From the NCBI GenBank assembly GCA_964405655.1, contig CAYOOO010000004.1, positions 9,013 through 73,012 on the forward strand: a stretch of DNA of 64,000 nt, written 5' to 3'. The notes under the pieces were generated by a model. That model searched no databases and was not told the origin of the DNA. It was given only the letters and a program-made list of their open reading frames with translations. The position numbers were made by a program, and so were the translations under genes. This document shows, piece after piece, positions 31,816-64,000 of the stretch (within the stretch, counting starts at the first letter, position 1; each line of letters starts with the position of its first letter). The DNA is from an uncultured Gammaproteobacteria bacterium (lineage in GTDB: Bacteria > Patescibacteriota > Microgenomatia > Daviesbacterales > UBA10151).

Positions 31816-32494
31816 ATCCCACTATAAATAAAGTCCCACAAAATTGTAAAATTGGGCAGAAGATAGGCTTAATTGTACTTCTAATACCAACCTTACTTAA
31901 AAGGTTCCTTAATCTTGGTGATGGAGGGAAACCAAAGGAAAAACATCCTTGAATCCTGATATCTTTAAACCCAACTCTTTGAAATGATTCTTTCCAAAAT
32001 TTTGCGCCCTTAACATTTATGTGGGTCGGATCATATGGTAATAATACTTTCCCTAGTATAGTACCCTCTAGATCCCCATTAGGGGTTGAGGCTAAGAATA
32101 TCCCTCCCTTATTTAATACCCTAAAAGCCTCAGCAATTACAAAATCTGAGTTCTGAGTATGTTCTAGCAGGTCAAAAGCAGTTACTGCATCCAATAAACT
32201 ACCTTTAAATGGCCACCTATCCTTAGACACATCTACAATTTTGACAGTAGCTTTGGTTCTCTTTCTTGCCTGAGATACAGCATAATCAGAAATTTCCAGA
32301 CCGAAGGTTTCGATATTTGCCTGGTCACAGAAACTTAAAAACTCACCAAGCGCGCAACCAACGTCCAGAATACTGCCTATCTGTTTTTTTCTTGATAACA
32401 GAAACTTGAGATGATATTTTAAGATCTGCTCTCGCTCATTGCTTTCTAACTTATAAAAGTCATCAAAATACTTTTTTCCGTAGCTATTCCCCAT
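31805..32494 (-). CDS. Class I SAM-dependent methyltransferase
   Basis: ILDVGCALGEF motif I and LASTPNGD (motif post-II). Length is 229 aa. Confidence 0.7.
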   Translation of the reverse strand: MGNSYGKKYFDDFYKLESNEREQILKYHLKFLLSRKKQIGSILDVGCALGEFLSFCDQANIETFGLEISDYAVSQARKRTKATVKIVDVSKDRWPFKGSLLDAVTAFDLLEHTQNSDFVIAEAFRVLNKGGIFLASTPNGDLEGTILGKVLLPYDPTHINVKGAKFWKESFQRVGFKDIRIQGCFSFGFPPSPRLRNLLSKVGIRSTIKPIFCPILQFCGTLFIVGFKN

Positions 32495-35400: not shown

Positions 35401-35561
35401 AATAAAATCCATCTGAGTATTCTTATATGGATTTTTTCTTCTTTTTTAACTAGCTTCAAAACGTCACCAGATAGTTTCTCAACATCTTCCTGAATTTTTG
35501 CTTCATTTAGTTTTAGAGAGTCAGTAGTATTACTCATCTTCTTTCTGCCACCATTTACCAA
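32484..35561 (-). CDS. Giant polytopic membrane protein (GT-C-like N-terminal TM domain + large extracytoplasmic domain + C-terminal TM)
   Basis: 1025 aa. About 13 TM helices in the first ~450 aa, then a soluble domain with WWPMLYDMPLARGY, and a final TM (LISLATILILIDLILF). Paralog of the adjacent 973-aa gene. Confidence 0.5.
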   Translation of the reverse strand: MVNGGRKKMSNTTDSLKLNEAKIQEDVEKLSGDVLKLVKKEEKIHIRILRWILFSVSGLINIAAAGIVYKTLEPVISWYLTKNPVRGIDLFLSATYTSYMIKWHDFLRPFAWKHFWFGGQPFSLDYPSLYFLGMIPFIEKFGLIQGVMHFAVFFLLIFAISCYFFYKELSFNAGLSLVLTIATILSVNLYRALVWAGGIPFWSTQAFYPLVGFLLIRFLNTYKKRWLYLASIAAGLGLLGHPQAFLNVIIPLSILILLFYSGREGLKFGQRIKNLIVFVVLWFLVGLPGVLSNFSSTLPATLFSYLGKVGSIFSNSLINRHTLESGPVEGSTAANIIKWSHDQFNYVLNDTQQLIWYLVGIFALCFVVTIIFRKHRLRSILCVLPFAIFLIYQFITIFLFSRGIDLFITGWYKAFWPIPVAAASLAAVFWGQISLAFNRFSEVKFFKITSWTTLVVANVFFIVFGYLYFTPGLTKALIARIDLLSTASSPYPDILNVKTSDAEMKEIAQKLTPKFIDPNDKNKRLYTVDATVNLWWPMLYDMPLARGYVDPPVNTLQRWGLFWLDSLMGPSGKDAKASLIIDWKTPENVAYENTKFLLDWNSVYYYLGNYASSSPSVLAEHVTTKDYVAEEEEVKSLGVIRRYGPKPEEIGKFFPDLTQTLKYYRVKPELVSPILAPNNASPILLIGDAVAYDTIYRFIGMRNLNSQKIVIATKSNFIDDYSLGELRKFDKVILYRYDYKNKSKAWGTLSKYLEKGGRIYIDTGPEGKEAASSNLPDILPIKHTIRNNIGRDWKVETADSNLTKGISFDKFSPLDFDGKPWNVSHPDSDSAVQSEAKVILKNNGKVVAASIDIGSGNLIWTGFNLPYHAIRDYNEEETKFLINMLFSGVDISEKKIGNFNYRFISPEKREVDSAGSRGVLFKEELYDSWKAKSESGKSLTLYKAGPTYPGYMYVPFSQDVKPKEVKFEFVGGIRWKIYHLISLATILILIDLILFRGFLIVRLSKKGLRLIHKKASTWWQKEDGE

Positions 35562-46603: not shown

Positions 46604-48166
46604 TTAACTGCCCTTTTTAGAAAAAATCTTATTTGATAAGTAATTTAGGGTGATGCTTCTAACCAAAACTAAATCTTTAATTATCTCTTTTTTCATGAAA
46701 ATATATATCAGTAGAGTGTATAAAAATAATCCAAATAGTAGAAAAGCTAACAAACTGATAAGGTTGTCTACTTTATATAAACTTTTCAAGACCAAGATGC
46801 TCAAACCAGTTAAAATAGACAGAATAAGTGGTGGAATAAAGATTCTCAAATAACTAAATGTAAAATATCTGTAAACTCTAGATAGAGTGACAAAAGTGCT
46901 TATGGATACGATCACCATTGCCAAATTAACACCCCAAAATCCAAATATCATCACCAGAGGAACTGTTAAAATCCATTGTAATATCGAGACAATCAAGTAG
47001 AAGTTACGATAATATTTAACTTCTCCCAGTGCTAAGAGTGTATTGACAACTAAAGCATTAATGGCTGTCAAACTGGTTTGGATAATGGCTAAATTTAAAG
47101 ATGTCAAACCATCTAACCAGCGTTGACCATAGATAAATCTTGTTACTTCAGAGGATAATACTAATACTAATGATGAAAGTCCAAACGTAGATATTAAAAT
47201 AATCTGCATAAATTTGCTAAATATCTTCTCTGCTAATTTAAGATTATGTTGCAACCTTGACATCAGAGGAAAAACTATTTGGTCAATAATAGATGCCAAG
47301 ATTGACGGAACTGCAGCTACTCCCCCAGCCCAGGTAATAAGTCCAACTGCTTCTGCTCCACTTAAGTGACCTGGTCCTGGAAATCGGCCAATAAAAACTG
47401 CGATAATTGCACCATTGAATAGTCCAACAATTGTGGTGAGTTGAAAAGAAAGTCCAAGTTTGAAAATTGACTTAAGCTTATTAAAATTAAAGCTAAATCC
47501 GAAAGGCCATGGGTAAAGAAGATAGTAAACTAATAATTGAACGATCTTGCTTAAAGTATAGGCATAGACAAAGCTCGCTGTTCCTAATCCCCAAATTGCA
47601 AATAGAATCGTTGAATACTGAGTGGTGAATAAACCTGTAACCTCACCAATAACACTTCTTCTGTATAGGAGGTGTCTCTCTAGTAGGTTGGGTGAGATAG
47701 AATTTAAATTGCCAATTATATTGGCAAAGACTAAAATCCTTAACCATCCTACTGCTTGCTTTTCTAACTCTCCCCCATAGAAAGATAAGATCAAAGGACT
47801 TAAACTCCAGATAAGCGCTCCAATAAGCAAAGCTAAGAATAAATGAATCCACCAAATGCTTCGCAGAAGAACCTTGTCAGGCTCTTCTTTCATTTGGATA
47901 ATTACTCTCCCTAACCCTAAATCTGCAAAAACCCAAAAAAAGGTTAAAGTAAATTGAATTATGGCAAACATTCCAAAATCTTGAGGAAAAAGTATTCTAA
48001 CTAGAATTAGGTTAGAAAGAGTTATTATTGCTTGATTAACAAATTTTTTAAAAACCAGCCAGCTAAGACTGGTTAGAATTAATTTTTTTACCTTCTTTTT
48101 AGAGTCAAAGTTCCAGATTAATACTAAATTATTCTCTTCTAATTGACCCTGAGAGTTATTTGCCAT
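46604..48166 (-). CDS. wzx: Wzx-type oligosaccharide flippase (MOP/polysaccharide biosynthesis protein family)
   Basis: 520 aa with about 14 TM helices. The N-terminal segment SWLVFKKFVNQAIITLSNLILVRILFPQDFGMFAI is typical of Wzx/RfbX. Confidence 0.55.
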   Translation of the reverse strand: MANNSQGQLEENNLVLIWNFDSKKKVKKLILTSLSWLVFKKFVNQAIITLSNLILVRILFPQDFGMFAIIQFTLTFFWVFADLGLGRVIIQMKEEPDKVLLRSIWWIHLFLALLIGALIWSLSPLILSFYGGELEKQAVGWLRILVFANIIGNLNSISPNLLERHLLYRRSVIGEVTGLFTTQYSTILFAIWGLGTASFVYAYTLSKIVQLLVYYLLYPWPFGFSFNFNKLKSIFKLGLSFQLTTIVGLFNGAIIAVFIGRFPGPGHLSGAEAVGLITWAGGVAAVPSILASIIDQIVFPLMSRLQHNLKLAEKIFSKFMQIILISTFGLSSLVLVLSSEVTRFIYGQRWLDGLTSLNLAIIQTSLTAINALVVNTLLALGEVKYYRNFYLIVSILQWILTVPLVMIFGFWGVNLAMVIVSISTFVTLSRVYRYFTFSYLRIFIPPLILSILTGLSILVLKSLYKVDNLISLLAFLLFGLFLYTLLIYIFMKKEIIKDLVLVRSITLNYLSNKIFSKKGS

Positions 48167-48212: not shown

Positions 48213-48995
48213 ATGAATAGACCTAATAACATTCCATCAATTTCAGCTGTTATTATAACTAAAAACGAGCAAGAGGTAATTGAGGATTGTTTAAAAAGTA
48301 TTGCTTGGGTGGATGAAATCATTTTGGTTGATGACTTTAGCAGTGATGATACTGTCAAAATCGCCAAAAAATATACTAGAAATGTATTTCTCCACAAGCT
48401 TCAAACACTGGGAAAACAAAAACAATTTGCCTTAGATAAAGCCAGGGGTGATTGGATCATAATGCTTGATGCTGATGAGAGAATTGCTGAGAGTTTAAAA
48501 AAAGAGGTAATTGAGGCAGTTAGCAAGGGTAACTTTGATGCCTATAATGTTTATTTTCATCAATTTTTTTTAGGTCAACCTTTAGTTCCTACTCTTTCAG
48601 GAGGTCATCCCAGGATTTTTAAAAGGGGTCTTGGGAAAATCATTCCTGATGCAATCCACGAAAAGATAGTCATAAATGGGAGTATTGGCCAACTAAAAAC
48701 GCCCATTATCCATCTCTCCCACCGGAGCCTTTCTCAGCTAATCAGTAAGTTTAACCACTTTACAGATAAGGAGGCTAAAATTATGTTTGAACACGGTTCA
48801 AGAGTAGGTAAACTTACAATAATCAGTTCTTTAATTCATAATTTCTGGATCCGCCAAAAAGTCTACCAAGATTACAAATCAGGAATCAGAGGCCTGGTTT
48901 TGACGTCTCTTTTTTTAATTTATCATTTTCTAAAGTGGATCAAGATCTGGGAGTTACAAACTCTGGTAAAAGATGGAAAAAAGAGAAATCACTAA
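48213..48995 (+). CDS. GT2 glycosyltransferase
   Basis: ISAVIITKNEQEVIEDCL...ILVDDFSSDDT...MLDADE. Confidence 0.7.
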   Translation: MNRPNNIPSISAVIITKNEQEVIEDCLKSIAWVDEIILVDDFSSDDTVKIAKKYTRNVFLHKLQTLGKQKQFALDKARGDWIIMLDADERIAESLKKEVIEAVSKGNFDAYNVYFHQFFLGQPLVPTLSGGHPRIFKRGLGKIIPDAIHEKIVINGSIGQLKTPIIHLSHRSLSQLISKFNHFTDKEAKIMFEHGSRVGKLTIISSLIHNFWIRQKVYQDYKSGIRGLVLTSLFLIYHFLKWIKIWELQTLVKDGKKRNH

Positions 48996-49729: not shown

Positions 49730-51103
49730 ATGGGAAACCGGACTGCTAAATTTTTGCGCATCCTCGGGCTTATTCTATCACTTGTTAGTATAGGGACTTT
49801 TATTTGGTTTTTTAATATAAGCAGAGCGACTAACCCAGAAATTAAACTACTCATTTTATCTTTAGGAATTATAATCAACTTTGCTACCATAATCTGTCTT
49901 CTAAAACTAAGTTTGCTTAAGCGTTTTCAATCGATTCTTTTTATTTACCTCTTCATAGTCACCTTTTATCTTATTGTTGAAACTCCATTATCATGGATTA
50001 GCTGGGTGGCTGGATGGGATAGTAGCTGCTGGCTTTTTGAGGATTCAGGTAAAACAATCAGATTCGATCCAATATTCGGTTACAGATTAGAAAAACAGCC
50101 TTCAAGATATGCCAGGATCACCAAACATTACTTAGAGTATGTCGGAATTCAAAAAGGAAATAACTTAGGTTTTCCGGATGATAGTCAATTTGAACCAAGA
50201 AAAGATCGGGTTGGCTTAAAAAGAATTGTCGTATTTGGTGACTCGTTTACTTCAGCCCAATATATTGCTGAAAATTGGCCTCAGCATAGTGAAATTTTAC
50301 TTCAAAACCAAGGATATCAGGTTGAGCTGATGAATTTTTCTCAGGAAGGTATTGGTCTTGCTAACTGGTGGAGAACATTAACTGAGGTTATAGAAAAAGA
50401 CAACTACGAAATCGACGGTATTATCTTTGCTGTTTTCAGAGGGGATCTAAAGAGAAAATTTGTTTTTGCCACCCATCAAAATAATCCTCATCCTTTATCA
50501 GGTCACTTAGATAGATGGCTACCAACCTACTACCCAGCTACTTTAGCAGAGGCAAAAAAGGCTATGAAACCTCTCAGCGAAGCAGTCATTGTCGATTCTA
50601 GTGTTTTTGATAAGGCAATTGGGACTACTCATTGTCCTTTTCAGGTTTCTCAAAAATTCAAACCTTATCTTATGGAAAAAGTGAATATTCAACTTGACCT
50701 AATGCTTCATAATTTTAATAAGGCCAGCGTCAATACTGTTAATAGTAATTTAAGCTACCAGGAAGCTTCAGATCGGCAGAGAATCATCGCCTCAATCAAA
50801 GACTTTCTTACCAAAAAAGGTCTGTCAAGTTTAGTTGTATATATACCTTCAAGAGAAGAAGAGACAAATAAGGCCAGCTCCTACTCGCCTGCTGAATTTG
50901 ACGATACTAAAAAATTTAGTCAAATTCTCGGCTCCTCATTTATAGATGGTAGGGAGCTTTATGCTAAAATGTCAAAAAAAGAGATTAAAAATAGCTTTTT
51001 CCCCTATGATGGTCACTGGAATCAGCTTGGATCAAACCATTTTGCAGATTACATAAGCAGACAGATACCTAATGTTTTCTCTTTAACCAAAGAGTCTAAA
51101 TAG
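49730..51103 (+). CDS. Membrane-anchored SGNH/GDSL-family hydrolase (probable glycan O-acyl esterase/transferase)
   Basis: N-terminal TMs, GDS block IVVFGDSFTSAQY, and a C-terminal DGHWN (DxxH catalytic dyad). Confidence 0.55.
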   Translation: MGNRTAKFLRILGLILSLVSIGTFIWFFNISRATNPEIKLLILSLGIIINFATIICLLKLSLLKRFQSILFIYLFIVTFYLIVETPLSWISWVAGWDSSCWLFEDSGKTIRFDPIFGYRLEKQPSRYARITKHYLEYVGIQKGNNLGFPDDSQFEPRKDRVGLKRIVVFGDSFTSAQYIAENWPQHSEILLQNQGYQVELMNFSQEGIGLANWWRTLTEVIEKDNYEIDGIIFAVFRGDLKRKFVFATHQNNPHPLSGHLDRWLPTYYPATLAEAKKAMKPLSEAVIVDSSVFDKAIGTTHCPFQVSQKFKPYLMEKVNIQLDLMLHNFNKASVNTVNSNLSYQEASDRQRIIASIKDFLTKKGLSSLVVYIPSREEETNKASSYSPAEFDDTKKFSQILGSSFIDGRELYAKMSKKEIKNSFFPYDGHWNQLGSNHFADYISRQIPNVFSLTKESK

Positions 51104-51549: not shown

Positions 51550-53307
51550 ATGTATATTTTAGGAATCTCCTGTTTTTATCACGACTCGTCAGCAGCTTTG
51601 CTTAAAGACAGTGTGATTATTGCTGCAGCAGCACAAGAGAGGTTCTCACGGATCAAACACGATACATCTTTTCCCACCGATGCTATCAATTTTTGTCTTA
51701 AGCAGGCTGGAATTACCATCGAGGAAATAAATTATATCGGTTTTTACGAGAAACCTCTTTTAAAATTAGAAAGAATACTATATCAACATCTCGAAATGTT
51801 TCCTCTGAGTTTAAAAACTTTTTTGTCATCTATGCCCTCTATTTTAAGCCAAAAATTGGCAGTAGTCAGTCTGATAAAAAAAAGGCTGGGATTTAAAAAA
51901 GCTGTCTTTTTTATTGAACATCATCTAGCTCATGCTGCCAGCTCATACCTACCCTCCTCTTTCAACAAAGCAGCTATAGTTACTTGTGATGGTGTGGGAG
52001 AATCGACAACCACCAGTTTTGGGATAGGGTCTGGAAATGACATTAAACTACTTAAACAAATAACCTTTCCTCACTCATTAGGTCTTTTGTATTCAACTAT
52101 TACTGCTTATTTAGGTTTTAGTGTCAATAATTCGGAATATAAGGTTATGGGACTTTCCGCTTATGGGGATAATAACTCAAAAACTAATAAATACTACAAA
52201 AAACTTAAACAAATAATTGATATAAAAAGTGATGGTAGTTACCACTTAGATATGGATTATTTGAATTATCACTTCAGTGACAAAATGCCTTCAAAAAAAC
52301 TTTGTCAATTGCTTGGCGGACCTGTTAGGAAGCCACTTGACCAAATAACTAACCGTCACCAAGATATTGCTGCAGCTGCCCAATTAATGCTTGAAGAGGT
52401 TTTAACAAAAATTTTCCAGTTTGTCCAAAAAACTACAGGTGAGGAGAATGTGGTTTTTGCAGGAGGAGTAGCATTAAATAGCGTCTTCAATAGCAAGATT
52501 CTGAGTAAAACCAAGTTTAAAAATATTTGGATTAGCCCTGATCCTGGAGACGGAGGAGGTAGCGTTGGAGTATGTTGTTATATCTACAATACCATTTTAG
52601 GCAAAAAAAGAATTACTCTTGATAGTGCTTATCTAGGCCCTAAATTTTCTTCAAAAGAGATAGAAAGATTTTTACTTAAAAACAAAATAGTGTTTAAAAA
52701 ATTTAGAAACAAAAAGCAGCTGATAGAAAGATGCGCAAGACTTATATTTGAAGATAAAATCCTTGGCTGGTTTCAGGGTCAGATGGAATGGGGCCCTAGA
52801 GCACTTGGAGCGAGGAGTATTTTATCAAATCCTTGTAATCCAAATATAAAAGAAATACTAAACACAAAAGTTAAGCATCGGGAAAAATTCAGACCATTTG
52901 CACCAGTTGTTTGTCAAGATGACACTAAGCTATACTTTGAAACTGGCTCAGATACTTCAAAGCTGAGCGATTTTATGTTGACGGTTTATCCGATTAAGAA
53001 AATTTGGCGCAAAAAAGTTCCAGGCGTAACCCATATTGATGGTAGTGGCAGGCTACAAACTATTAAAAGAGCTCAAAATCCCCTTTTTTATGACCTGATA
53101 AAAAGATTCGGTCAGCTTTCAGGGGTCTCTATGCTAATAAATACCTCATTTAATATTCGTGGTGAACCAATAGTTTGTACACCTTTGGATGCTTACAAAT
53201 GCTTGATGGGAACAGGGATTGATTATTTAATTATGGGTGAGTTTTTGGTAAAAAGAGATGATAACTCAAAAGATTTTTGGGATAGTGAAAAATATGCAAA
53301 GGACTAA
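51550..53307 (+). CDS. Carbamoyltransferase, NodU/NolO/CmcH family
   Basis: N-terminus MYILGISCFYHDSSAALLKDSVIIAAAAQERFSRIKHD is the conserved Kae1/YgjD-like fold of carbamoyltransferases. Length is 585 aa. The C-terminal domain has GGVALNS and GPRALGARS. Confidence 0.85.
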   Translation: MYILGISCFYHDSSAALLKDSVIIAAAAQERFSRIKHDTSFPTDAINFCLKQAGITIEEINYIGFYEKPLLKLERILYQHLEMFPLSLKTFLSSMPSILSQKLAVVSLIKKRLGFKKAVFFIEHHLAHAASSYLPSSFNKAAIVTCDGVGESTTTSFGIGSGNDIKLLKQITFPHSLGLLYSTITAYLGFSVNNSEYKVMGLSAYGDNNSKTNKYYKKLKQIIDIKSDGSYHLDMDYLNYHFSDKMPSKKLCQLLGGPVRKPLDQITNRHQDIAAAAQLMLEEVLTKIFQFVQKTTGEENVVFAGGVALNSVFNSKILSKTKFKNIWISPDPGDGGGSVGVCCYIYNTILGKKRITLDSAYLGPKFSSKEIERFLLKNKIVFKKFRNKKQLIERCARLIFEDKILGWFQGQMEWGPRALGARSILSNPCNPNIKEILNTKVKHREKFRPFAPVVCQDDTKLYFETGSDTSKLSDFMLTVYPIKKIWRKKVPGVTHIDGSGRLQTIKRAQNPLFYDLIKRFGQLSGVSMLINTSFNIRGEPIVCTPLDAYKCLMGTGIDYLIMGEFLVKRDDNSKDFWDSEKYAKD

Positions 53308-53523: not shown

Positions 53524-55650
53524 TTATTTATTATGTAAGCTGTTCTGTTTTAATTTAGAAATAATCTTATTACCAAACAAAGGATATGAGAGGAAAAGAC
53601 CTAGGGTTAAAAAGCTTATTAAGTAGCCCAACCAAACCTGCCAGGTAGTTGAGTGCTTAAGAATAATGTCTATTTGGCCAAACTTTTTAGGTTCAAGAAG
53701 GATAAAACCTAACGGGTCCTTGGAAACCCTAGCTGAAACTTTATTGGCTTTATCATAAGCGCTCCAGCCTGAGTCAGCTGTCATCTGGACGAGGATCCCT
53801 TCCCTGTTATCAATCTTGCCTGTAATCTGGTAAGTGCTGTTGTTAATGACTTTAAAATCTAATTGATTTGGGCTGGAATTTTCCAGCCAATTAATATACC
53901 TTAAAATTCTTTCCTTATCGTCAGCCTTAACAGGAACCTTAATATTCTTAATTTGATCTAGATTGATTGATTTAGATAGGGATTCCTTTTTTAAGGGAAT
54001 CTGATAAATAATATCTGCACCCAGCTTGTCTTTGACAGGATAATTCTCAAAGCGTTCAAAGTTTTTAGTATCATGGTAAAGCTCAGTCGAGCCTGGAGTA
54101 GTTATAACAGCATATTTGGCATTGATTATTCTTAGCCAAGCATCAGCGATTTCTGGGCTTTTACCATTGGTTAACTGATAATAGATATGGTCTGGCCATC
54201 TATTAGTTGAGGCCTGATAAAGACCACCTCTTAACTGCCAGATATTACTAAACCAGTTTAAATAAAATCCATAGTTTCCAGATATAAAAACTCTCTCCCC
54301 TTTTGATAGGTCAACATCTTCTTTCAAGGCTTGGGCTACTTTAAATTCAGAAGTTTTTTCTAAATCAACCACTTCTGAGGCTGCTTGATTTGCGGTTTTA
54401 ACAAAGGGTTTGATATAAGTTGAAGAGAAGACTAAAAATACTATTACCAAAGCCCAAGTAAAAATATTAGCCATCTTCCATTTCCTCTCTAAAAGTCTAG
54501 AAATCATTCCTACAAATATACCAATCAAGAGGGCCATACTAAGATCAACCTCAGCGTTATACCTTAAAGCCTGAGGCAAAAGTTCTATTCTATAAGCAGA
54601 CTCATCTGGAGGAGCTGACAAGTAATAGGTTGCCACAACAGTAAACATCAGCAAAAACCAGACTAGGCTGGAGGCTAAACCAAAGTCTTTGATAAAGCGG
54701 CGGATTAGTATAAAAGCTATGAAAATAGCCACAAAGCCTGCTATCCATCCCCAAGGAAACGAAGAGATTAAGATATTACTTGTACCTCCACCTTCTCTAA
54801 AAAAGGTTGATAAAAAAGTTAAGTTATACCAAAAAGAGATTAGGCCTAAAGAAGCAACTCCGGCCAGAATAAAAAGTAGTAAGTTTTTGCTGCGGTTTGT
54901 ATCTGACTGACAAAATTTAACAAAAGCCATCGAAGCCATCAAAAGAATCGTGGCAAATAGACCAATCGCATTCGTTAGACCAACCAAACCAACAAAGATG
55001 GCTGTTAAAAACAGATTAACTCTTTTGGGCTTTTCTAAAAATCTGGCAAAAAAGAGTCCAGCTATTGGAATAAAAATTAGCGAAAACAGGTGAGGTCCTT
55101 CTCCCCATCGAACCAGAATAGTAAATCTTCTGGGATCCCAGAAATCTGCTGAAAACCTATCTTGAGCGACTTCTCCACTTTCTAGAATAAAGTAGAAGAT
55201 AGTTGGCAAGACTGAATATAAAACACCTGCTACTACTCCTCCAATTAGTCTTTTTGATAGCTGCCAAGCCAAAAAAAAGAGCGAAACTGGGCCAACAATA
55301 TAGGCAAAGCCAGTTAAGTTGCGGTAAGCCTCCCAAAGCTCGAAGCCCCAAAATTTATGCAGCATTGCCTCAAGAACTGGCAAAAGCGGCGTATAAAAAA
55401 CATGGAAAGGAAATCCTAGATACCAAAAAGGAGCCCAGGATGATCCACCAACTGGCAGACCAAAATCCACCAAAAATCTGCCCATTGAGACATAGGAAAC
55501 CTCGATTGAGCCTATATTAGCTGGTCCATTTTTTCCCAGCCAGCCTGAGATCATCTGGTAATTTAACCAATAGAGAAAAATCACAACTAAGATCGCAGAG
55601 ACAAAAGTTATGAGGACGCTTAAAACCTTCTTTTTAGAAAATTGTGGCAT
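53524..55650 (-). CDS. Polytopic membrane protein with C-terminal extracytoplasmic domain (same family as the giant paralogs)
   Basis: 708 aa. N-terminal ~12 TM, then NWFSNIWQLRGGLY, the counterpart of the W..PL.RGY motif of 32484/35530. C-terminal TM. Confidence 0.45.
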   Translation of the reverse strand: MPQFSKKKVLSVLITFVSAILVVIFLYWLNYQMISGWLGKNGPANIGSIEVSYVSMGRFLVDFGLPVGGSSWAPFWYLGFPFHVFYTPLLPVLEAMLHKFWGFELWEAYRNLTGFAYIVGPVSLFFLAWQLSKRLIGGVVAGVLYSVLPTIFYFILESGEVAQDRFSADFWDPRRFTILVRWGEGPHLFSLIFIPIAGLFFARFLEKPKRVNLFLTAIFVGLVGLTNAIGLFATILLMASMAFVKFCQSDTNRSKNLLLFILAGVASLGLISFWYNLTFLSTFFREGGGTSNILISSFPWGWIAGFVAIFIAFILIRRFIKDFGLASSLVWFLLMFTVVATYYLSAPPDESAYRIELLPQALRYNAEVDLSMALLIGIFVGMISRLLERKWKMANIFTWALVIVFLVFSSTYIKPFVKTANQAASEVVDLEKTSEFKVAQALKEDVDLSKGERVFISGNYGFYLNWFSNIWQLRGGLYQASTNRWPDHIYYQLTNGKSPEIADAWLRIINAKYAVITTPGSTELYHDTKNFERFENYPVKDKLGADIIYQIPLKKESLSKSINLDQIKNIKVPVKADDKERILRYINWLENSSPNQLDFKVINNSTYQITGKIDNREGILVQMTADSGWSAYDKANKVSARVSKDPLGFILLEPKKFGQIDIILKHSTTWQVWLGYLISFLTLGLFLSYPLFGNKIISKLKQNSLHNK

Positions 55651-56137: not shown

Positions 56138-57598
56138 CTAGCTTACCCTCTCCTCAGGCTGTTTGATATTGGCAATCCTGGGAAACAGGAAGATAATTAT
56201 CAAAAAATAGATCAGGGTGGCTAAAGATAGGCTTTGAGCTACAGTAACAAAGGTCCTATCAGGACTTTGTGGTCTGGCTATACCACCAACTCCTAAAGCT
56301 TTTTGAACTAAAATTGGTGCCTCACTGACTTCTTTTTGGGCAGCCTTAACACTAAAGTAGCTACTCATTCCCAGCATTACAATCAGAGCAGTTGAGATTA
56401 GGATCAGGAATGAGAAGATAACTGTACTTTTGAGCCTAATCAAATAGTTTTTAATCAGAAACTGAGAAAGAGGAGTAAATAAGACTGCTACTGCAAAAGA
56501 GGTAGCTACAGAAAGTTCGATTAGATATCTTTCAGCAGTAAAAATCCCAGTCACTCTAAGGTTTTTACTAATCCAATAGAGGCCAAGATAGATCGATAGC
56601 ATGACAATTCCTAGGAAAAATGGCTGGAGTTTAACCCGGCGGTCAAAAATTAGATACAGAAGCGTTCCGACAACTGGAACCAGTGGTATAGTTATTGGCA
56701 AAGAACGAAGCAAACCATTTATTGCGAATTCAACATGTTTTAAGCTCATAATAGTCTGTAAGTTTGAGGGTAGATACCAAAAAAGAGAAAGCCCAAAGGC
56801 TGAAGCTACGACAAAGATTAGCCTGATAATTTTAACTTTTAAGTTTCCTTGAAAAATGCCAGCCACTGTCAGTATCAAATAAAGTATCATCAAGTTAAAT
56901 GTAGCAAAGGGGGAGATAATTGCTATTGCAGCAGTTCCTAAGGCTGTAGCAATACCAGCTGTAGATAAACCAGAGGATAAGAAAGACTGTAAACCTATTA
57001 AAAGCAGCGGAATAAAGGAGAAAGCTAAGGCATGAGCACCGTCGCCATTTAAGATTGCCCCAATCAAAGGTAATCCTTGTTTTAAAAAAGGATTTGGCAG
57101 GACAAATAGCAAAGTCGCCAAAAAAGCAATTGAATCATGTTTTAAAACATTTCTTCGAACAAACAGATAGAAGCTTAAAGGGGCTGTAGATAAAGCTAAG
57201 ACCGTCAGGACTAAGAAAAATTGGTACCTTGTCAATATATTCAACCCTTCAAGAAAATTAGATACCATCATCAAAGCTTGAGATGAGGCGAAAGCTGGAG
57301 TTAAGTTAAGCTGAAAAATGGGCATAACGAAAAAGAGATTAAGTACATAAATAGTTACTAAGAAGACCAGGCTGACTATGTTTAGATCTCCTCCCTCACT
57401 CCAAAGAAAGTTTTTCTCAATATTATTGGCAAAACTGGTATTACCAAGTCTATTGGAAAAACGAATACCTCTTTTTAGATCAGTTGTTAGATCTGGTTCT
57501 AAATTTTCAGGATTTGAACTATTATTTTGTTCAATCAGCTTAGGATCAGATACAGTTTGATCTTCCTTGACAGGAAGCGTTTTGGGCAGTTTTTTCAT
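56138..57598 (-). CDS. Polytopic integral membrane protein, hypothetical
   Basis: 486 aa with more than 10 TM helices and an N-terminal polar region. Confidence 0.35.
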   Translation of the reverse strand: MKKLPKTLPVKEDQTVSDPKLIEQNNSSNPENLEPDLTTDLKRGIRFSNRLGNTSFANNIEKNFLWSEGGDLNIVSLVFLVTIYVLNLFFVMPIFQLNLTPAFASSQALMMVSNFLEGLNILTRYQFFLVLTVLALSTAPLSFYLFVRRNVLKHDSIAFLATLLFVLPNPFLKQGLPLIGAILNGDGAHALAFSFIPLLLIGLQSFLSSGLSTAGIATALGTAAIAIISPFATFNLMILYLILTVAGIFQGNLKVKIIRLIFVVASAFGLSLFWYLPSNLQTIMSLKHVEFAINGLLRSLPITIPLVPVVGTLLYLIFDRRVKLQPFFLGIVMLSIYLGLYWISKNLRVTGIFTAERYLIELSVATSFAVAVLFTPLSQFLIKNYLIRLKSTVIFSFLILISTALIVMLGMSSYFSVKAAQKEVSEAPILVQKALGVGGIARPQSPDRTFVTVAQSLSLATLIYFLIIIFLFPRIANIKQPEERVS

Positions 57599-57658: not shown

Positions 57659-59491
57659 TCAATAGTCTTCTGTATCAACAGAGCTCTTTCTTAAAATTTT
57701 TGTTAACAAAGGATAGAAATAATCATAAAAAACAAATACAACAAACAATATCAAAAACAAAAACATGAGTGGTATTAACCAACTAACTCTAAAAAGCTGA
57801 AATTTTAATAAATAGTTTTGTTTTCCAGTTTGCTTGGGAATCAAAACCATATTACCAAGGCTATCTGAAGTAAGCTTGCCTTGACCAGATACAATATCCC
57901 AACCTGGATGGTAGGTTATAGCTAGAGAAATAATCTTACTTTTATCCAAATCTGCCTCAATCTCAATCTGGTTTGGTCTAAGAACTACCTGGTGCAAATT
58001 ATCTTTCAATTTTGATACATACTGATTTACCCTAATATTATCTGATCCATCTTTAGGAGGCTTTAAATTTAATAAACTTTTATCAGCAATCCTGACTAAG
58101 TTACCAGAGTCTAACTTAAATATAAAATCTCCTTGCTTATTACCAATAGTTTGCCAGTTTTTAAACTTATCAATAAATCTAAAATCTTTAAAATATTCCC
58201 TAGATTCTTCTTGATTAACCAAGATAAAATTTGTTCCTAAGGCTTCGAGCCACTTTTTAGATAGATCTCCATCTGCTTCTTCCCTGATTTGATAGGCAGC
58301 ATGACGCCAAAAAGGATGAACTGAAGCCTCATCCACTCCCCCTCTGAGCTGCATTAGATTTAATTTAGAATTTAGCCAAAATACAGCTGAACCTGAAGTA
58401 AATATCCGCTGATTAGCAGGCACATCTTTCAATAAACCCAGGATATCTTTCTGATAGGTTAAGTTTTTTGAATCTGTCCAAGTTTTAAATATTTGAAAAT
58501 AGATTAAAACTGACAGCCCAAAAACTAAAACCAAAGCTAATAAGCCCCATTTTTTAACTCTGTCCTTAGCAAAAAAACTAGATAAAATTAGTGCTAACCC
58601 AAACTGGATCTCGCTTGTAAAACTAATCCAATCTATCAAAAAATCAGGATCAGAAATAAATCTAAATAGGCTTAAGAACCCGAAAGCAGTTAGAAAGAAA
58701 AGACTAAATTTTGATAGAAAAGAAAGCTTGATCTTTTTTAGCTTGACTACCCACAAGGCAATTATTATTGGTAATAGGTTAAAAAGGAATGAAAAAATCA
58801 GTTTGATTAAAGAAAAAAGTGGCTTCCCACTCAAGGAAGGATTTTTTAAGATAGCCCACCAAACCTCGCTAGTATACCAAAAAGAGATAGTAACTAAGGC
58901 TAAACAAATTAGTAAAATTATTTTAAAAATTAGATATACTCTTAGGGATTTTTTAACTTCTATAGTTAGAAAAAGGCAGATTAAACCTATCAAAATAGTC
59001 AATAATGACGAAATATTAATTAATACAGCAAATACTACTAAAATATATAAATATAGATCATTTTTTAAGTTATTTTTAGTTAAAAAGTTACAAAATTGAT
59101 AAAAAATCCAGATAGAAACTGATAAAGCTATCATTTGCAAACCACTAGAAAAACTAAGCAAAAAGTAGCTTAAAGGAAGGGTTAAAAACAACACTTGTGC
59201 TAGTATTGATTGTCTTTTTTCTGCTCCTAACCTTTTTGTTAACTTGTATACTCCCAAACTTCCAAAGATTACAGCCAAAAACATCAAAATAAAATAGCCT
59301 GTGGTTGTATCAAGTCTTAATAAGCTTTTAAAAATCCATAAACTAATTGGTATAACTGGTCCAATTAAAAAGTTAAAGGGATTGCCAAGGTACCAGTTGG
59401 GATACCAGCTGAAGTCGGGAAAATTTTTAATAAAGAAGTCTGATAAAGCAATTACCGAGGGTATTAAGGATGTTTGGGGAATATTAAGCAT
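57659..59491 (-). CDS. Polytopic membrane protein, paralog of 53524..55650
   Basis: 610 aa. FWLNSKLNLMQLRGGVDEAS motif. C-terminal TM LIPLMFLFLILFVVFVF. Confidence 0.45.
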   Translation of the reverse strand: MLNIPQTSLIPSVIALSDFFIKNFPDFSWYPNWYLGNPFNFLIGPVIPISLWIFKSLLRLDTTTGYFILMFLAVIFGSLGVYKLTKRLGAEKRQSILAQVLFLTLPLSYFLLSFSSGLQMIALSVSIWIFYQFCNFLTKNNLKNDLYLYILVVFAVLINISSLLTILIGLICLFLTIEVKKSLRVYLIFKIILLICLALVTISFWYTSEVWWAILKNPSLSGKPLFSLIKLIFSFLFNLLPIIIALWVVKLKKIKLSFLSKFSLFFLTAFGFLSLFRFISDPDFLIDWISFTSEIQFGLALILSSFFAKDRVKKWGLLALVLVFGLSVLIYFQIFKTWTDSKNLTYQKDILGLLKDVPANQRIFTSGSAVFWLNSKLNLMQLRGGVDEASVHPFWRHAAYQIREEADGDLSKKWLEALGTNFILVNQEESREYFKDFRFIDKFKNWQTIGNKQGDFIFKLDSGNLVRIADKSLLNLKPPKDGSDNIRVNQYVSKLKDNLHQVVLRPNQIEIEADLDKSKIISLAITYHPGWDIVSGQGKLTSDSLGNMVLIPKQTGKQNYLLKFQLFRVSWLIPLMFLFLILFVVFVFYDYFYPLLTKILRKSSVDTEDY

Positions 59492-60092: not shown

Positions 60093-60953
60093 TTAAGGTT
60101 TTGAAAGAGTTAGATCTTCGATTGGACCAATAAAAATACTGTTATTTTTTCTGGTGGCAATTCGCTCAGGATTCGTCTCAACCTTTAAAACTCCGTTAAT
60201 AAAGATCTTCTTGACCCTCTTCTCACCTGTAAAATCCCAGGTCAGGGTAACCTCGAATGTTTTACCCTGATAATCTGATCCTAAATCTGCATCCGGTTCC
60301 GGATCATCTGATCCTGAATGACCGTTATTATCATAGGTATCAAAAACTAAAAGTCTCCCTGAACCTGCAATAATAAATGCACCCCTGTTATCAGAGTTAT
60401 TATAGCTTGCCAAAACCAAGGTTCTATCTTTATCCCCTCCCTCAATAGGCCAATCAGCTTTAACGCTAAATTTAATAGTGCCTTGTTTAATATTAAACAT
60501 TTCATTCCCGCTGTAGGCTTTCAAATTACCAATATCCTTAATACCAAATAACTGAATCTGCTCCCGACGAGGCTGGAAATCATCCGGGACTGTAAAGTTA
60601 TTAGCTAGGCTTTGGGATAGTTCAGATTGCTCTTCTTTTTTAACGCCACCTTGATTGTTTTGGACAGAAGAAGATGGTCTAGGGGTTGATTTTGCTGATG
60701 AATCGGTTGCACTCTTGGCTGAGGAGGTACTGTTTGGTAGATTTTGACCCTTATCTAATAATTGACTGTCTAAGAATTCTCTTGGGACTGACGGGTTTTT
60801 AATTCCTAATAAAACTCCAACAAAAACTATTATTGCCATTATATCAATCACCATCAAAAGTCTCTTAATTTTTTTGGAAGTCAAAAAGTTAGCTTTTTGA
60901 TAGTTTAAATTAGGTTTTTGATGTTTAAAATGTTTTTGGCTAAAATTTGTCAT
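60093..60953 (-). CDS. N-terminally anchored extracytoplasmic protein with Ser/Thr-rich linker
   Basis: 286 aa. TM MVIDIMAIIVFVGVLLGI, then a low-complexity STSSAKSATDSSAKSTPRPSSS linker and a beta-rich domain. Confidence 0.35.
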   Translation of the reverse strand: MTNFSQKHFKHQKPNLNYQKANFLTSKKIKRLLMVIDIMAIIVFVGVLLGIKNPSVPREFLDSQLLDKGQNLPNSTSSAKSATDSSAKSTPRPSSSVQNNQGGVKKEEQSELSQSLANNFTVPDDFQPRREQIQLFGIKDIGNLKAYSGNEMFNIKQGTIKFSVKADWPIEGGDKDRTLVLASYNNSDNRGAFIIAGSGRLLVFDTYDNNGHSGSDDPEPDADLGSDYQGKTFEVTLTWDFTGEKRVKKIFINGVLKVETNPERIATRKNNSIFIGPIEDLTLSKP

Positions 60954-63900
60954 AATCTTTTACTCTCCCTTAATTTCTTTAGTAAGCCTGGTAAAAACGG
61001 CACCAGAAGCACCAAAACCAAGGTTTTTTCTGGCAAAGTACCAAACTCAAAGTTAGACCCCTGCCTAAGTACCACACCGATCTGGCTAGTCCCGTAGCCA
61101 GACAGAGGCCCTGAGATATTACCTAAATCTCCGGCCGTAAATTTATAAGAGTATGTTGATCCCCAAGAGATTGAGCTGGCAGCGCTGTCAATAAAATAGG
61201 CCTGCTCACTGGTATCCATAATTCCATGGGCATAGATCCTGGTATTTTGAGAATCATAAGTTAGGGAAACCTGGGTTAGGTTAGTCTGGCTGGTAAAAGG
61301 GGCTGTTAAACTGGTAACTGAAGGGAAGGCATTGGTGGTTGTGACATCGGCAAATTGAACAGTTGGTACTCCGGCGCTATCTGTATCGTAATAAGCAAAT
61401 TTACAATCTGTACTGCTTGGACAATAGACTGCTCCTTTAAATCTGGGGCCGGGCATGGCTTGAACTGATCCAGAAGAACAGCCGGCATTATCGCAATCTA
61501 CAAAATTAAGTCCGTAGTCATTGATATCTGAAATATAGGTTAATTTGCAATCAGTGGCAGACGAACAATACATCGAGACAGAGGGGTAATTATTGACATC
61601 TTGCTTAGCACTATTTGGCCCATCATCAATATCTCCAGCCGTACTATCAATCGTTGTAACAGAATCAGTTGCAGAACAAGTAGTCGTGCTGGTAGAGCAA
61701 TCTATAAAGAAAACATCGCTAGTACTGGGATCATTATAGACAATTTTGCAGTCAGAGGAAGCAAAACACTTGATTGACATAGCCACTGAGTTATCTACCC
61801 CTCCAACAGACGCATCCAAGGTTGTGCTTGTGCCTGTTGAGCAGCCAGCATTACCGCAGTCCCTAAAAATTAAATCCGAACTAGCCTGAGTGTGCCAGAC
61901 TAATTTGCAGTCAGTTACTCCCAAGTTACAATCCATCGAGACAAAAACTCTAGCAGCGCCGGCGTTCCCATCAACGTCAGTTGTGGCATTAGGCACGCTG
62001 CAAGATCCATCATTGCAATCAAGGAAGGTGACATCATTTGTGACAGGATCATTATATAAAACCCGGCAATCTGTACTTCCGCCTGTACAATCAACATCAC
62101 TATGGGAAGTATCAGCCGCCCCTCCTAAATCACTATCAAGCGTGCTGGTAGCGTCTGTAGTCGAACAAGCTGAATTTGAACAATCAATCATTTTTAGTAA
62201 AGGGGTGGCTGTATCCATGTCATCACCATAGACAACTTTGCAGTCTGTGCTTGAGACGCACCAGATTGAGGGATTGGCAGCATCAGAAGAATCACCAATA
62301 TCAGAATCTAGCGTTGTGGTAGTGCCTGTTGAACAAGTTGCATCATCACAATCCCTAAAAATCAGCTTAGGGGCGGTTGTGTCCAAATCATCTGTATAAA
62401 CAAACTTACAGTCAGTAGCTGACACGCAGTACATATCAATATCTGATAAACCATCATAACCAATTGCTCCTGTATCGCTGTCGATTGAGGTCTCGGTAAA
62501 ATCAGTTGTGCAGCATTTATAAAAATTGGTCGAGGTTGTGCCTGAGACTGATAAAACCCAGACAGTTGTTCCATCGGTGGTGACAGAGTAAACATTATCT
62601 GTCACTGAGGCGATGGTTAGATTGTTAGTTGTCCAATCAACTGTTCTGGCATTTAACTCAGAGTAAGATAGATCTCCGTCCTGAAAAACCATCCCAACTC
62701 TGGAAGCACCATCAATGTTTATTACCACTGGCCGATCACTGGCTGTTAGACCATTACCAAAGGTAATCAGAGAGGTGGTGACAGCAGTAGAAGTACAAGT
62801 TCCGTCAAGTCCAGTCACATAATTGACTCCAACAGAGGTTCCTGTTGAGGTATCAGAGTAAGCCATCACTGCAGTCCTCCCATCCACAGCTACCACACTA
62901 GGCATATAGGTTGTGCCCAGCGAGGATGCGACAATAGTACATTTTGTACCTAAGGCATCTGAAGCAGCTAAATCAATTATCTTGCCCTCAATACCAGTAG
63001 TGGTTGTCGAGTCCTGCCAAACAGCAACTATGCTTGAAGCGTTATAGGAGACCGAAATGTTATTATTATCTGCATCTGCTGAATCAATATCAACAGCTGC
63101 TGCCCAGCTCGAGCCACCATTAGTAGATTTTTTATAAGAAACGCTTTGACCGTCAGCATAAAAGGCATACCAGTTAATTGTCCCTGAAAGATCTGTGTAA
63201 TAAATCTTCATCGAGATATAGTCAACAGAGGCGGTATTTGTTCCCTTAGTCCCTGAGGTATCTCGATAGGAAAATCCAATTCCAAAATTGGCATTAGTCA
63301 CATCTGATCTGCTCAAACTCACCCCCCAAAGCTGTTTGTTGCCTCCATAGGTGATAGTAGCCTCAGTTGTAGGTATAGCTGCGTTAGTACTTTTATCATC
63401 GCCAACTAACCTTCCCGCCTTGTATAGCCTGATAGAATTCTCCTGTAAACCAGCTGCAGCTGCTTTCCTCTCGACATTGACCTCGATACCATCAATTACC
63501 GCAGTCGATGGTATAGTGGAGAAATCAAAGTTAGTCACCTTAAGATAGCCTGATGTGTATTGACCGGCAGTAGTGACCACGGCTGTTGCATAAGTATTAT
63601 TACTAGATATAGCGTTAGAGGGATTGGTCCAAGAGACGTACCCGATAGTTCGATCGCTCTCAAAACTAGCTCCGGCAATATGTCCAACTGTACCTGTAGA
63701 AGAAGAGACTGCTACCACCTTCCTTTGCATGCTGCCATAGCTAGTTTCCCCCTCAGTAATTCCGCCTGAAACTATGACTGTTGGGTCAATCACGATTGGA
63801 AATTCTCTCTTGCTTTCTTTTAACCATTCTAAGGCTTTCCTATTGATATGCTTTGTTAGCTTATAACCAAGCTGCTGTTTTTCCATAGTGATAGAAAGAT

Positions 63901-64000
63901 CATTATTTTTAACTTGTTTGGCATCTTGGGCAAAAGGAGCGGCATATTTGAAAATCTCTTGACCATCTTCGGTAAAGATCCCGAAGGTATCAGGCCTATC
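60950..64000 (-). CDS. Large surface protein with tandem four-cysteine repeats and a C-terminal LPEKT-TM-basic sorting-signal-like tail (5' end outside window)
   Basis: The reading frame stays open upstream of the first ATG (63886) to the window edge. There are about 7 repeats of C-x4-DCK-x15-18-DC-x4-C. C-terminus is TLPEKTLVLVLLVPFLPGLLKKLRESKRL. Confidence 0.6.
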   Translation of the reverse strand, partial: DRPDTFGIFTEDGQEIFKYAAPFAQDAKQVKNNDLSITMEKQQLGYKLTKHINRKALEWLKESKREFPIVIDPTVIVSGGITEGETSYGSMQRKVVAVSSSTGTVGHIAGASFESDRTIGYVSWTNPSNAISSNNTYATAVVTTAGQYTSGYLKVTNFDFSTIPSTAVIDGIEVNVERKAAAAGLQENSIRLYKAGRLVGDDKSTNAAIPTTEATITYGGNKQLWGVSLSRSDVTNANFGIGFSYRDTSGTKGTNTASVDYISMKIYYTDLSGTINWYAFYADGQSVSYKKSTNGGSSWAAAVDIDSADADNNNISVSYNASSIVAVWQDSTTTTGIEGKIIDLAASDALGTKCTIVASSLGTTYMPSVVAVDGRTAVMAYSDTSTGTSVGVNYVTGLDGTCTSTAVTTSLITFGNGLTASDRPVVINIDGASRVGMVFQDGDLSYSELNARTVDWTTNNLTIASVTDNVYSVTTDGTTVWVLSVSGTTSTNFYKCCTTDFTETSIDSDTGAIGYDGLSDIDMYCVSATDCKFVYTDDLDTTAPKLIFRDCDDATCSTGTTTTLDSDIGDSSDAANPSIWCVSSTDCKVVYGDDMDTATPLLKMIDCSNSACSTTDATSTLDSDLGGAADTSHSDVDCTGGSTDCRVLYNDPVTNDVTFLDCNDGSCSVPNATTDVDGNAGAARVFVSMDCNLGVTDCKLVWHTQASSDLIFRDCGNAGCSTGTSTTLDASVGGVDNSVAMSIKCFASSDCKIVYNDPSTSDVFFIDCSTSTTTCSATDSVTTIDSTAGDIDDGPNSAKQDVNNYPSVSMYCSSATDCKLTYISDINDYGLNFVDCDNAGCSSGSVQAMPGPRFKGAVYCPSSTDCKFAYYDTDSAGVPTVQFADVTTTNAFPSVTSLTAPFTSQTNLTQVSLTYDSQNTRIYAHGIMDTSEQAYFIDSAASSISWGSTYSYKFTAGDLGNISGPLSGYGTSQIGVVLRQGSNFEFGTLPEKTLVLVLLVPFLPGLLKKLRESKRL

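Follow-up and report, generated by a model that had tools for sequence, protein, structure and literature searches.

The ectodomain of the CRINKLY4 receptor kinases (ACR4/PpCR4) represents an extracellular seven-bladed propeller featuring one conserved stabilising disulfide per blade, which has been taken to reflect adaptation to conditions outside the cell (10.1101/2020.08.10.245050). The minor pilin PilX2 of Saccharibacteria was described as a heptabladed propeller resembling the lectin CV39L, and deletion of the pilX2 gene significantly reduced host binding, approximately by half (10.1101/2024.11.25.624915). Furthermore, the XrtG system is composed of a CTERM protein, XrtG and two glycosyltransferases (PMC12854382). 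In this study, a tandem array of four-cysteine units was analyzed, which is encoded on the minus strand of a 64,000-nucleotide stretch of contig CAYOOO010000004.1 (the whole of this stretch is termed the window, and all coordinates refer to it). Based on structure prediction, the array is one closed, compact seven-bladed beta-propeller, in which each unit of ~50 amino acids (aa) represents one four-stranded blade. This putatively disulfide-stapled propeller is, on balance, probably a surface-exposed ligand-binding head, with a glycan as the probable ligand, on the outside of a fusion protein containing a family 2 glycosyltransferase (GT2) synthase.

The Four-Cysteine Array and Its Conservation

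The array-bearing open reading frame (ORF) occupies positions 60950..63886 on the minus strand and encodes 978 aa; its frame is still open at base 64000, the window edge. Residue numbers refer to this ORF unless the full protein is named. The ORF contains 30 Cys residues, 26 of which are regularly spaced within aa 487-828. Each unit follows the pattern C-x5/6-C, ~17-20 residues, D-C-x4/6-C and a further ~20-35 residues; the four Cys are designated C1 to C4. The array was placed at 61340-62533 and comprises six units with four Cys each, a seventh that holds only the first Cys pair, and an additional N-terminal strand. C1 of the seven units is located at aa 487, 543, 600, 653, 707, 774 and 822. 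In a MAFFT alignment, the complete units start at aa 483, 539, 596, 649, 703 and 770 and the seventh at aa 818. In this last unit, C1 and C2 are kept, while C3 is Val and C4 is Ala. The segment preceding the first unit, 'FYKCCTTDFTETSIDSDTG', was found to match the tail of a repeat unit in the same alignment. The features of the array are as follows (scores refer to the orthologue-only unit model described below):

62459..62533, minus strand: pre-unit segment, aa 452-476, with adjacent Cys458-Cys459 and strand ETSIDS ('KCC..ETSIDSDTG'); aligns with the unit tail
62273..62440, minus strand: blade 1, aa 483-538, Cys 487, 493, 513 and 518, 65.9 bits; four strands in the array-only model
62102..62272, minus strand: blade 2, aa 539-595, Cys 543, 549, 569 and 574, 61.5 bits
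61943..62101, minus strand: blade 3, aa 596-648, Cys 600, 607, 624 and 629, 50.8 bits
61781..61942, minus strand: blade 4, aa 649-702, Cys 653, 660, 677 and 682, 47.2 bits
61580..61780, minus strand: blade 5, aa 703-769, Cys 707, 713, 730 and 737, 46.2 bits; long low-confidence loop at aa 752-765
61436..61579, minus strand: blade 6, aa 770-817, Cys 774, 780, 798 and 803, 47.5 bits
61340..61435, minus strand: blade 7, aa 818-849, three strands, Cys 822 and 828 only, 26.3 bits

A 113-aa ORF on the plus strand (61890-62231) lies antisense within this well-supported minus-strand gene and was treated as a shadow ORF.

Searching 5.8 billion proteins yielded 11 orthologues with 38-49% identity, originating from Candidatus Curtissbacteria and other metagenomic sources, and all of them possess exactly seven units. 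None of the four Cys is replaced in any of the 63 units aligned from 12 proteins; the Lys following C2, the Tyr three residues further on and the Asp preceding C3 are conserved to at least 90%. At the C3 and C4 positions of blade 7, almost every one of the 11 orthologues compared has Cys (P0011 does not; relatives are cited by P numbers, contigs and loci by L numbers). A lack of Cys conservation across orthologues, which had been named as a finding that would speak against the repeat, was thus not encountered in these units.

A unit hidden Markov model (HMM) was built from orthologue units only, leaving out the window's own units. It assigned the window units the scores listed above, versus a best score of 9.7 bits among 500 composition-preserving shuffles of the array region. 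The six full units share 27-50% pairwise identity. Tandem Repeats Finder detected no array in the DNA at 61300-62550, so that the repeat is seen at the protein level only, which argues for old and diverged units and not for a recent duplication. Because of the HMM scores in comparison to the shuffles, the degree of unit identity and the missing signal at the DNA level, the repeat is judged from the sequence to be real, ancient and under maintaining selection. The original prediction of a tandem array at 61350-62520 (aa 456-846) was therefore correct as to the existence of the repeat and, within a few codons, its position. The predicted ~7 units of ~50 aa held for the number seven but not for their equality, as six full units, one three-stranded unit and an N-terminal strand were found.

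Predicted Fold of the Array

Beta-propellers are built from repeats ~40-60 aa long that each fold into an antiparallel sheet of four strands; they close to a toroid, often by means of a velcro strand, and their blade number is fixed per family. Structure modelling with AlphaFold and fold comparison with Foldseek, both suggested together with the original prediction, were applied to the array. Within the 978-aa ORF, AlphaFold2 modelled the array with a predicted local distance difference test (pLDDT) score of 85-90 and four strands per unit. Foldseek searches with the full-length model returned double-propeller proteins, sialidases and GH74 proteins as generic matches with low TM-scores. Since the low scores are due to the multi-domain nature of the query, the array was modelled alone (aa 450-865, using the 20-sequence alignment A4), yielding a confident model with a pLDDT of 83.9, a predicted template modelling (pTM) score of 0.88 and 28 strands. 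This number equals 7 x 4 if the N-terminal strand at aa 464-469 (model residues 15-20) joins unit 7, which has just three strands of its own. In the model, this ETSIDS strand is the fourth, outer strand of blade 7 and provides the velcro closure of the ring. C1 and C2 flank the hairpin of strands A and B, and C3 and C4 that of strands C and D.

Four-stranded repeats, toroidal closure and a fixed blade number, as known from seven-bladed propellers, were thus all observed for the array. A closed ring is favored over an open array because the number of units is 7 or 14 in relatives. Seven-bladed propellers were retrieved by Foldseek for the array-only model, the highest TM-scores being those to the fucose lectins PLL4 (0.61/0.73) and PHL (0.60/0.70). 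Many WD40 proteins were also among the structural matches.

Pairing of the Cysteines

Among 1276 aligned units, the Cys patterns CCCC (574 units), --CC (687) and CC-- (7) were recorded, with hardly any single losses. An even number of Cys per array was counted in 61 of 62 proteins, additional Cys within loop insertions likewise occur in pairs, and blade 7 of the window has lost C3 and C4 together. Because the Cys are kept or lost as the pairs C1-C2 and C3-C4, two independent local disulfides per blade are inferred, one joining C1 and C2 over the A/B hairpin and one joining C3 and C4 over the C/D hairpin. This co-retention and co-loss agrees with the earlier assumption that four Cys per unit correspond to two disulfides. 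Two such staples per blade would amount to 13 disulfides in the window copy and, by analogy with CRINKLY4 and with moderate confidence, would stiffen the propeller for the extracellular milieu.

Adjacent Cys458 and Cys459 (KCC, 62510-62515), located just N-terminal of the velcro strand, are kept in 8 of the 11 orthologues and are missing from P0006, P0009 and P0011. The two could be linked to each other in a vicinal disulfide or bonded to some other partner.

The Full-Length Protein and Its Outer Propeller

For the N-terminal half of the protein, which extends beyond the window, contig L001 (200-6403) was used; it supplies the whole gene encoding 2067 aa and matches the window ORF at 976 of 978 residues. 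The full protein consists of two helix-turn-helix (HTH) domains, two transmembrane segments, the GT2 catalytic domain, further transmembrane helices, the extracytoplasmic region and a PE-type tail. In Pfam searches, HTH domains were assigned to aa 9-49 and 141-180 and GT2 to aa 419-728 of the full protein, the GT2 models scoring above their cutoffs. The best GT2 matches in NCBIfam were PgaC/IcaA, CelA, the XrtP-associated glycosyltransferase and NodC, all of them under the equivalog cutoffs (PgaC_IcaA: E 6e-29, 101 bits, cutoff 422). Transmembrane helices are present on both sides of the catalytic domain, the last N-side helix spanning aa 860-878 of the full protein, and the ~1160 residues that follow it hold 30 of the 33 Cys of the full protein. 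Based on its placement between this helix and the C-terminal transmembrane anchor, and on the accumulation of Cys in this segment, the array is predicted to be extracytoplasmic, as had been proposed. The designation as a large surface protein was incomplete, since the ORF covers just the C-terminal half of a membrane protein of 2067 aa that is a GT2 synthase fusion. The parts of this protein within the window that surround the array are the following:

60950..64000, minus strand: C-terminal 1016 codons of the giant gene (full product 2067 aa), running off the window
63191..63709, minus strand: beta-rich domain, aa 60-232, low AlphaFold2 confidence
62534..63184, minus strand: N-terminal blades of the outer propeller, aa 235-451, all-beta with four-strand periodicity and a Cys316/Cys364 pair
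61037..61339, minus strand: C-terminal blades of the outer propeller, aa 850-950, strands in the AlphaFold2 model
60953..61036, minus strand: C-terminal sorting-signal-like tail with LPEK, a hydrophobic helix and KKLRESKRL; transmembrane helix at aa 2040-2058 of the full protein

For the beta-rich domain at aa 60-232, similarity to the N-terminal domain of DUF6701/MshQ-like proteins was noted (P0015-P0019, with E-values from 1e-17 to 7e-7). Upstream of the array, a beta-propeller periodicity with a BNR-like STNGGSSW motif had been predicted, and both were recovered. The four-strand periodicity is accompanied by one degenerate Asp-box (STNGGSSW, aa 253-260), which in orthologues takes the canonical form STDNGATW or SSDGVTW; no Pfam BNR match was obtained for this region, and the full-length model matches sialidases and GH74 proteins. 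In three more distant relatives (P0012-P0014), both flanks are kept while the array is absent, and the flanks are joined directly ('...TNFYEYSGGSWSTKTAPWTGQTNL...'; junction 'TNFYEYSGGSW..TAPWTGQTNL'). The array is therefore a discrete inserted module. Together with the double-propeller and sialidase matches of the full-length model, this comparison points to an outer BNR/sialidase-like propeller that accommodates the Cys propeller between its blades.

In some orthologous synthase fusions, 14 units, i.e., two tandem Cys propellers, occupy the same insertion point (L006:6025-8289; P0020-P0032). The two HTH domains of the full protein are transposase-like. The HTH-GT2 fusion recurs across no fewer than 15 relatives, suggesting that a polysaccharide synthase has a DNA-binding domain attached to it.

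Relatives and Other Contexts of the Repeat

A search for the repeat consensus in related genomes, which had also been recommended, was carried out by scoring a 52-position unit profile against 1.84 billion representative proteins (clusters at 50% identity). It returned 2583 representatives at E<=1e-3, four-Cys and two-Cys classes together, and 1084 at E<=1e-10. Among the four-Cys relatives recovered, seven units are present in 49 proteins, 14 in 12 proteins, 8 and 13 in one protein each and 2-5 in 15 proteins; sequences with counts other than 7 or 14 are mostly short or visibly truncated. Members of the two-Cys class match profile positions 13-45 only, mostly possess 6-7 or 12-14 units and follow the consensus '..G.DG.P.ISYYD.TNGDLK.A.C....CS....T.D..G.VG', in which C3 and C4 only are represented.

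Searches of public collections were largely negative. For the 978-aa window protein, Pfam yielded no family at E<=1, including BNR, and the NCBIfam and PDB sequence searches gave no credible match. The unit profile likewise had no credible match in the PDB (the best hit, with E 0.026, covers 12 residues and is to an eggshell Cys-rich protein). Relatives produced only sub-threshold noise from zinc-finger families in Pfam, and no Pfam or NCBIfam model exists for either class. The two-Cys relative P0095 matched the CV39L lectin model NF052350 with 24 bits (cutoff 350, E 1.5e-5). Searched by sequence against the PDB, neither P0163 nor P0095, both of the two-Cys class, retrieved a lectin or gave a link to the PLL lectins. 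The statement that no known Cys-repeat family (EGF, TNFR, chitin-binding or dockerin) is involved was in agreement with the Pfam, NCBIfam and PDB sequence searches. Novelty, which had also been claimed, applies to the sequence family but not to the fold, which is well known. The sequence family, the pattern of two disulfides per blade and the combination of synthase, propeller and exosortase in bacteria of the Candidate Phyla Radiation (CPR) are uncatalogued in Pfam and NCBIfam.

Two-Cys propeller repeats of the type 'ISYYDxTNGDLKxAxCxxxxCS' were observed in P0095, P0115, P0135, P0156, P0163 and others, and the N-terminus of P0095 showed a sub-threshold match to a Bdellovibrio 'mosaic adhesive trimer' fibre (NF053851, E 6e-10).

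The four-Cys propeller was also found following GT2 synthases that lack an outer propeller and in giant secreted proteins with LamG-like C-termini. Moreover, it is located behind type IV pilin-like N-termini in P0066, a Curtissbacteria protein with a type II secretion system annotation, in P0165, which has an N_methyl motif, and in P0033 and P0035, which feature archaeal-type pilin N-termini (Pilin_N and UpsB-like, weak matches). The latter two sequences hint at a module shared with archaea, possibly DPANN. In place of the PE-type tail, P0009, P0036, P0042, P0057, P0025 and P0021 end in the conserved motif 'QLMRHGxWFxGGxEQxFxF', which may be another sorting or anchoring signal.

C-Terminal Tail and Gene Neighbourhood

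The tail of the window protein reads LPEK-TLVLVLLVPFLPGLL-KKLRESKRL, and tails of the type [VLI]PE[KRYNF], helix and basic cluster are common to most relatives. The layout is that of the PEP-CTERM type, comprising a short C-terminal motif, a transmembrane helix, a basic cluster and an exosortase gene alongside. Downstream of the fusion gene, genes for the 286-aa, 201-aa and 610-aa proteins listed here are followed by that for a 486-aa protein:

60093..60953, minus strand: 286-aa membrane-anchored conserved protein without assigned function, encoded directly after the big gene and ahead of the exosortase; synteny seen in L006, L007 and L010
59484..60089, minus strand: exosortase/archaeosortase-family protein, 201 aa, TIGR04178, two genes downstream of the big gene
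57659..59491, minus strand: conserved 610-aa polytopic membrane protein; syntenic in L006, L008, L009, L011, L012 and L017

The 201-aa protein scored 36.8 bits against TIGR04178 (cutoff 23), whereas the named subfamilies remained below cutoff (ArtC 27 bits versus 100, XrtG 12.8 versus 102.75, and XrtM). In L005-L011 and L017, orthologues of this protein with 54-61% identity are encoded downstream of the synthase fusion, and a more diverged copy (34%) is present in L012. Much of the gene order recurs in 8-9 loci from Curtissbacteria, Levybacteria and related metagenome-assembled genomes (MAGs), and in every case the synthase fusion precedes the exosortase gene. Neither the 286-aa nor the 610-aa protein matched a family in Pfam or NCBIfam. 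The 610-aa neighbour was also considered as an XrtG-type partner related to PTPS, which was unsupported, as BLASTP against the PTPS_related protein of the window shows no similarity. No paper treating exosortase systems in CPR/Patescibacteria was found in the literature. MAGs titled 'uncultured Gammaproteobacteria' (L006, L008, L009, L015 and L017) carry the CPR-type locus with 40-60% identity to the window genes, and these labels are probably wrong.

Further along, positions 26000-57600 of the window represent a glycan-biosynthesis island with the following features:

28313-30655: GT4/GT1 glycosyltransferase
32484-35561: PTPS_related membrane protein
35530-38451, 53524-55650 and 56138-57598: large proteins without family match
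46604-48166: Polysacc_synt family protein, taken to be a flippase
48213-48995: GT2 glycosyltransferase
49730-51103: AlgX-like SGNH protein
51550-53307: carbamoyltransferase
within 26000-57600: methyltransferase

Proposed Function and Alternatives

As a binding head, the Cys propeller would recognise a ligand, most likely a glycan, i.e., either the polymer made by its own GT2 half or the surface of a partner cell. In this way, it would hold or organise the polymer that the synthase half of the protein makes, or it would mediate attachment to a partner cell. Processing of the C-terminal anchor would fall to the exosortase, as in CTERM/exosortase systems like that of XrtG and the glycosyltransferases associated with it (PMC12854382). 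Glycan binding by the propeller, for which PLL-type lectins and the propeller-bearing CPR pilin PilX2 serve as models, and exosortase processing of the anchor are proposed by analogy and with lower confidence. A binding head is preferred over a catalytic core because the module is portable and always extracellular, occurring in pilin fusions and in secreted giant proteins.

Several observations weigh against this proposal. No ligand site was identified in the propeller, and the conserved non-Cys residues K, Y, D and F recur in every blade and may be purely structural. No sequence link between the window protein and PLL-type lectins was found, the sole sub-threshold match coming from a two-Cys relative. 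The pairing of the Cys is deduced from sequence co-variation. Furthermore, NCBIfam CTERM models searched against four isolated tails gave no match at E<=10.

The propeller was also considered as an enzyme acting outside the cell (a glycoside hydrolase, a lyase or a transferase), which would trim or modify the polysaccharide delivered by the fused GT2 synthase, much as other synthase systems are accompanied by cellulases or lyases. The top structural matches include CylK, the glycoside hydrolase BACINT_00347, L-rhamnose-alpha-1,4-D-glucuronate lyase, virginiamycin B lyase and sialidases, and both the synthase fusion and the surrounding glycan-biosynthesis island would fit. However, conservation is equal in all blades, with no blade-specific conserved catalytic constellation, the sialidase-like part is the outer BNR-like propeller and not the Cys array, and the occurrence of the module on pilin N-termini and in giant adhesin-like proteins suits binding better. 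An enzymatic role is thus regarded as unlikely.

Somewhat less likely again, the propeller would not bind a glycan but serve as a platform on which proteins dock, examples of such partners being the 286-aa neighbour, the exosortase and a surface-layer-like lattice. Propellers commonly serve as protein scaffolds, WD40 proteins are numerous among the structural matches, and the neighbouring genes are conserved while having no assigned function. Yet the module is also found without these neighbours, in the pilin fusions and secreted giant proteins, and its best TM-scores are those to lectins.

The original prediction had envisaged a rigid stalk of independent two-disulfide modules, i.e., a passive spacer keeping the distal protein away from the membrane. 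Many disulfides, a composition rich in Ser, Thr and Asp and the extracellular location are in line with such a spacer, but the units were modelled as blades of one closed propeller and count 7 or 14 in relatives, which makes a stalk very improbable. Hardly credible, finally, is metal binding by the four Cys of a unit as a Zn(Cys)4 knuckle pair devoid of disulfides: the CX5C...CX4C arrangement gives weak sub-threshold Pfam matches in relatives (zf_CopZ, Ogr_Delta and PyrI_C), but every zinc-family match is below cutoff, the domain is extracytoplasmic, the pairs are independent (the two-Cys class keeps only C3/C4, blade 7 of the window only C1/C2), and C1 on the innermost and C4 on the outermost strand of a blade, according to the strand map of the model, would be too distant for one site.

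Implications

The carriers of the repeat are surface proteins of the ultrasmall CPR/Patescibacteria (synthase fusions, pilin fusions and secreted giants), and the repeat offers a lead into CPR surface biology, including envelope building and host attachment. Since the repeat family is sizeable and has no Pfam or NCBIfam model, a curated model would annotate thousands of 'hypothetical' metagenomic proteins and would also flag candidate adhesins or glycan binders. Two disulfides per blade would represent an unusual hardening of a beta-propeller for life outside the cell.

A more far-reaching scenario, to which only a slim chance is given, is a CPR-specific, self-contained 'synthase-adhesin' machine. 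Here, a processive GT2 synthase would be covalently fused to an extracellular propeller-in-propeller lectin head, and the adjacent exosortase would cut the PE-type anchor and transfer the head onto the polysaccharide extruded by this same protein or onto the wall, resulting in a glycan-tethered, disulfide-hardened adhesin that holds the episymbiont to partner cells. If this were true, the four-Cys propeller would be a first representative of an extensive family of binding modules, extracellular and so far uncatalogued, that CPR bacteria and possibly DPANN archaea have in common. The finding as such is an extension, i.e., a new domain family and not a new principle, because the fold and the logic of a disulfide-stabilised extracellular propeller are already known.

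Comparison with Known Systems

The two-Cys propeller repeats, an uncurated metagenomic family, are homologous to the four-Cys units, with whole-protein E-values down to ~1e-94 on profile positions 13-45. The C3/C4 pair, the Y-x-D and the T-x-D strand are kept, whereas 'G-x-DG-x-P' takes the place of the C1/C2 hairpin pair, and the protein contexts differ. The PLL-family lectins (PLL, PLL3-5, PHL, BP39L and CV39L) share the seven-bladed fold of the Cys propeller, but at 8-11% identity. Lectins of this type bind fucose in pockets between the blades, which contain conserved aromatic and polar residues. The window protein does not match NF052350 at E<=1, no PDB lectin was matched by the window protein, the unit profile or two two-Cys relatives, and the four-Cys pattern is specific to the window's repeat family.

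Exosortase systems (PEP-CTERM/EpsH, PEF-CTERM/ArtC and Firmicu-CTERM/XrtG) resemble the locus in the tail motif with transmembrane helix and basic cluster and in the exosortase gene alongside. They differ in that the window motif is [VLI]PE[KRYNF], matched by no curated CTERM model, and in that the presumed substrate is here fused to the glycosyltransferase itself. The link between exosortase and glycosyltransferases in the XrtG system parallels the cluster in the window (PMC12854382).

PilX2 is likewise a CPR surface propeller on a pilin, corresponding to the four-Cys propeller on pilin-like N-termini of Curtissbacteria proteins, but its described RCC1 repeats belong to a different sequence family, and no Cys pattern was reported for it. 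CRINKLY4, finally, shares disulfide-stabilised blades with the array, featuring one disulfide per blade compared to the two deduced for the Cys propeller.

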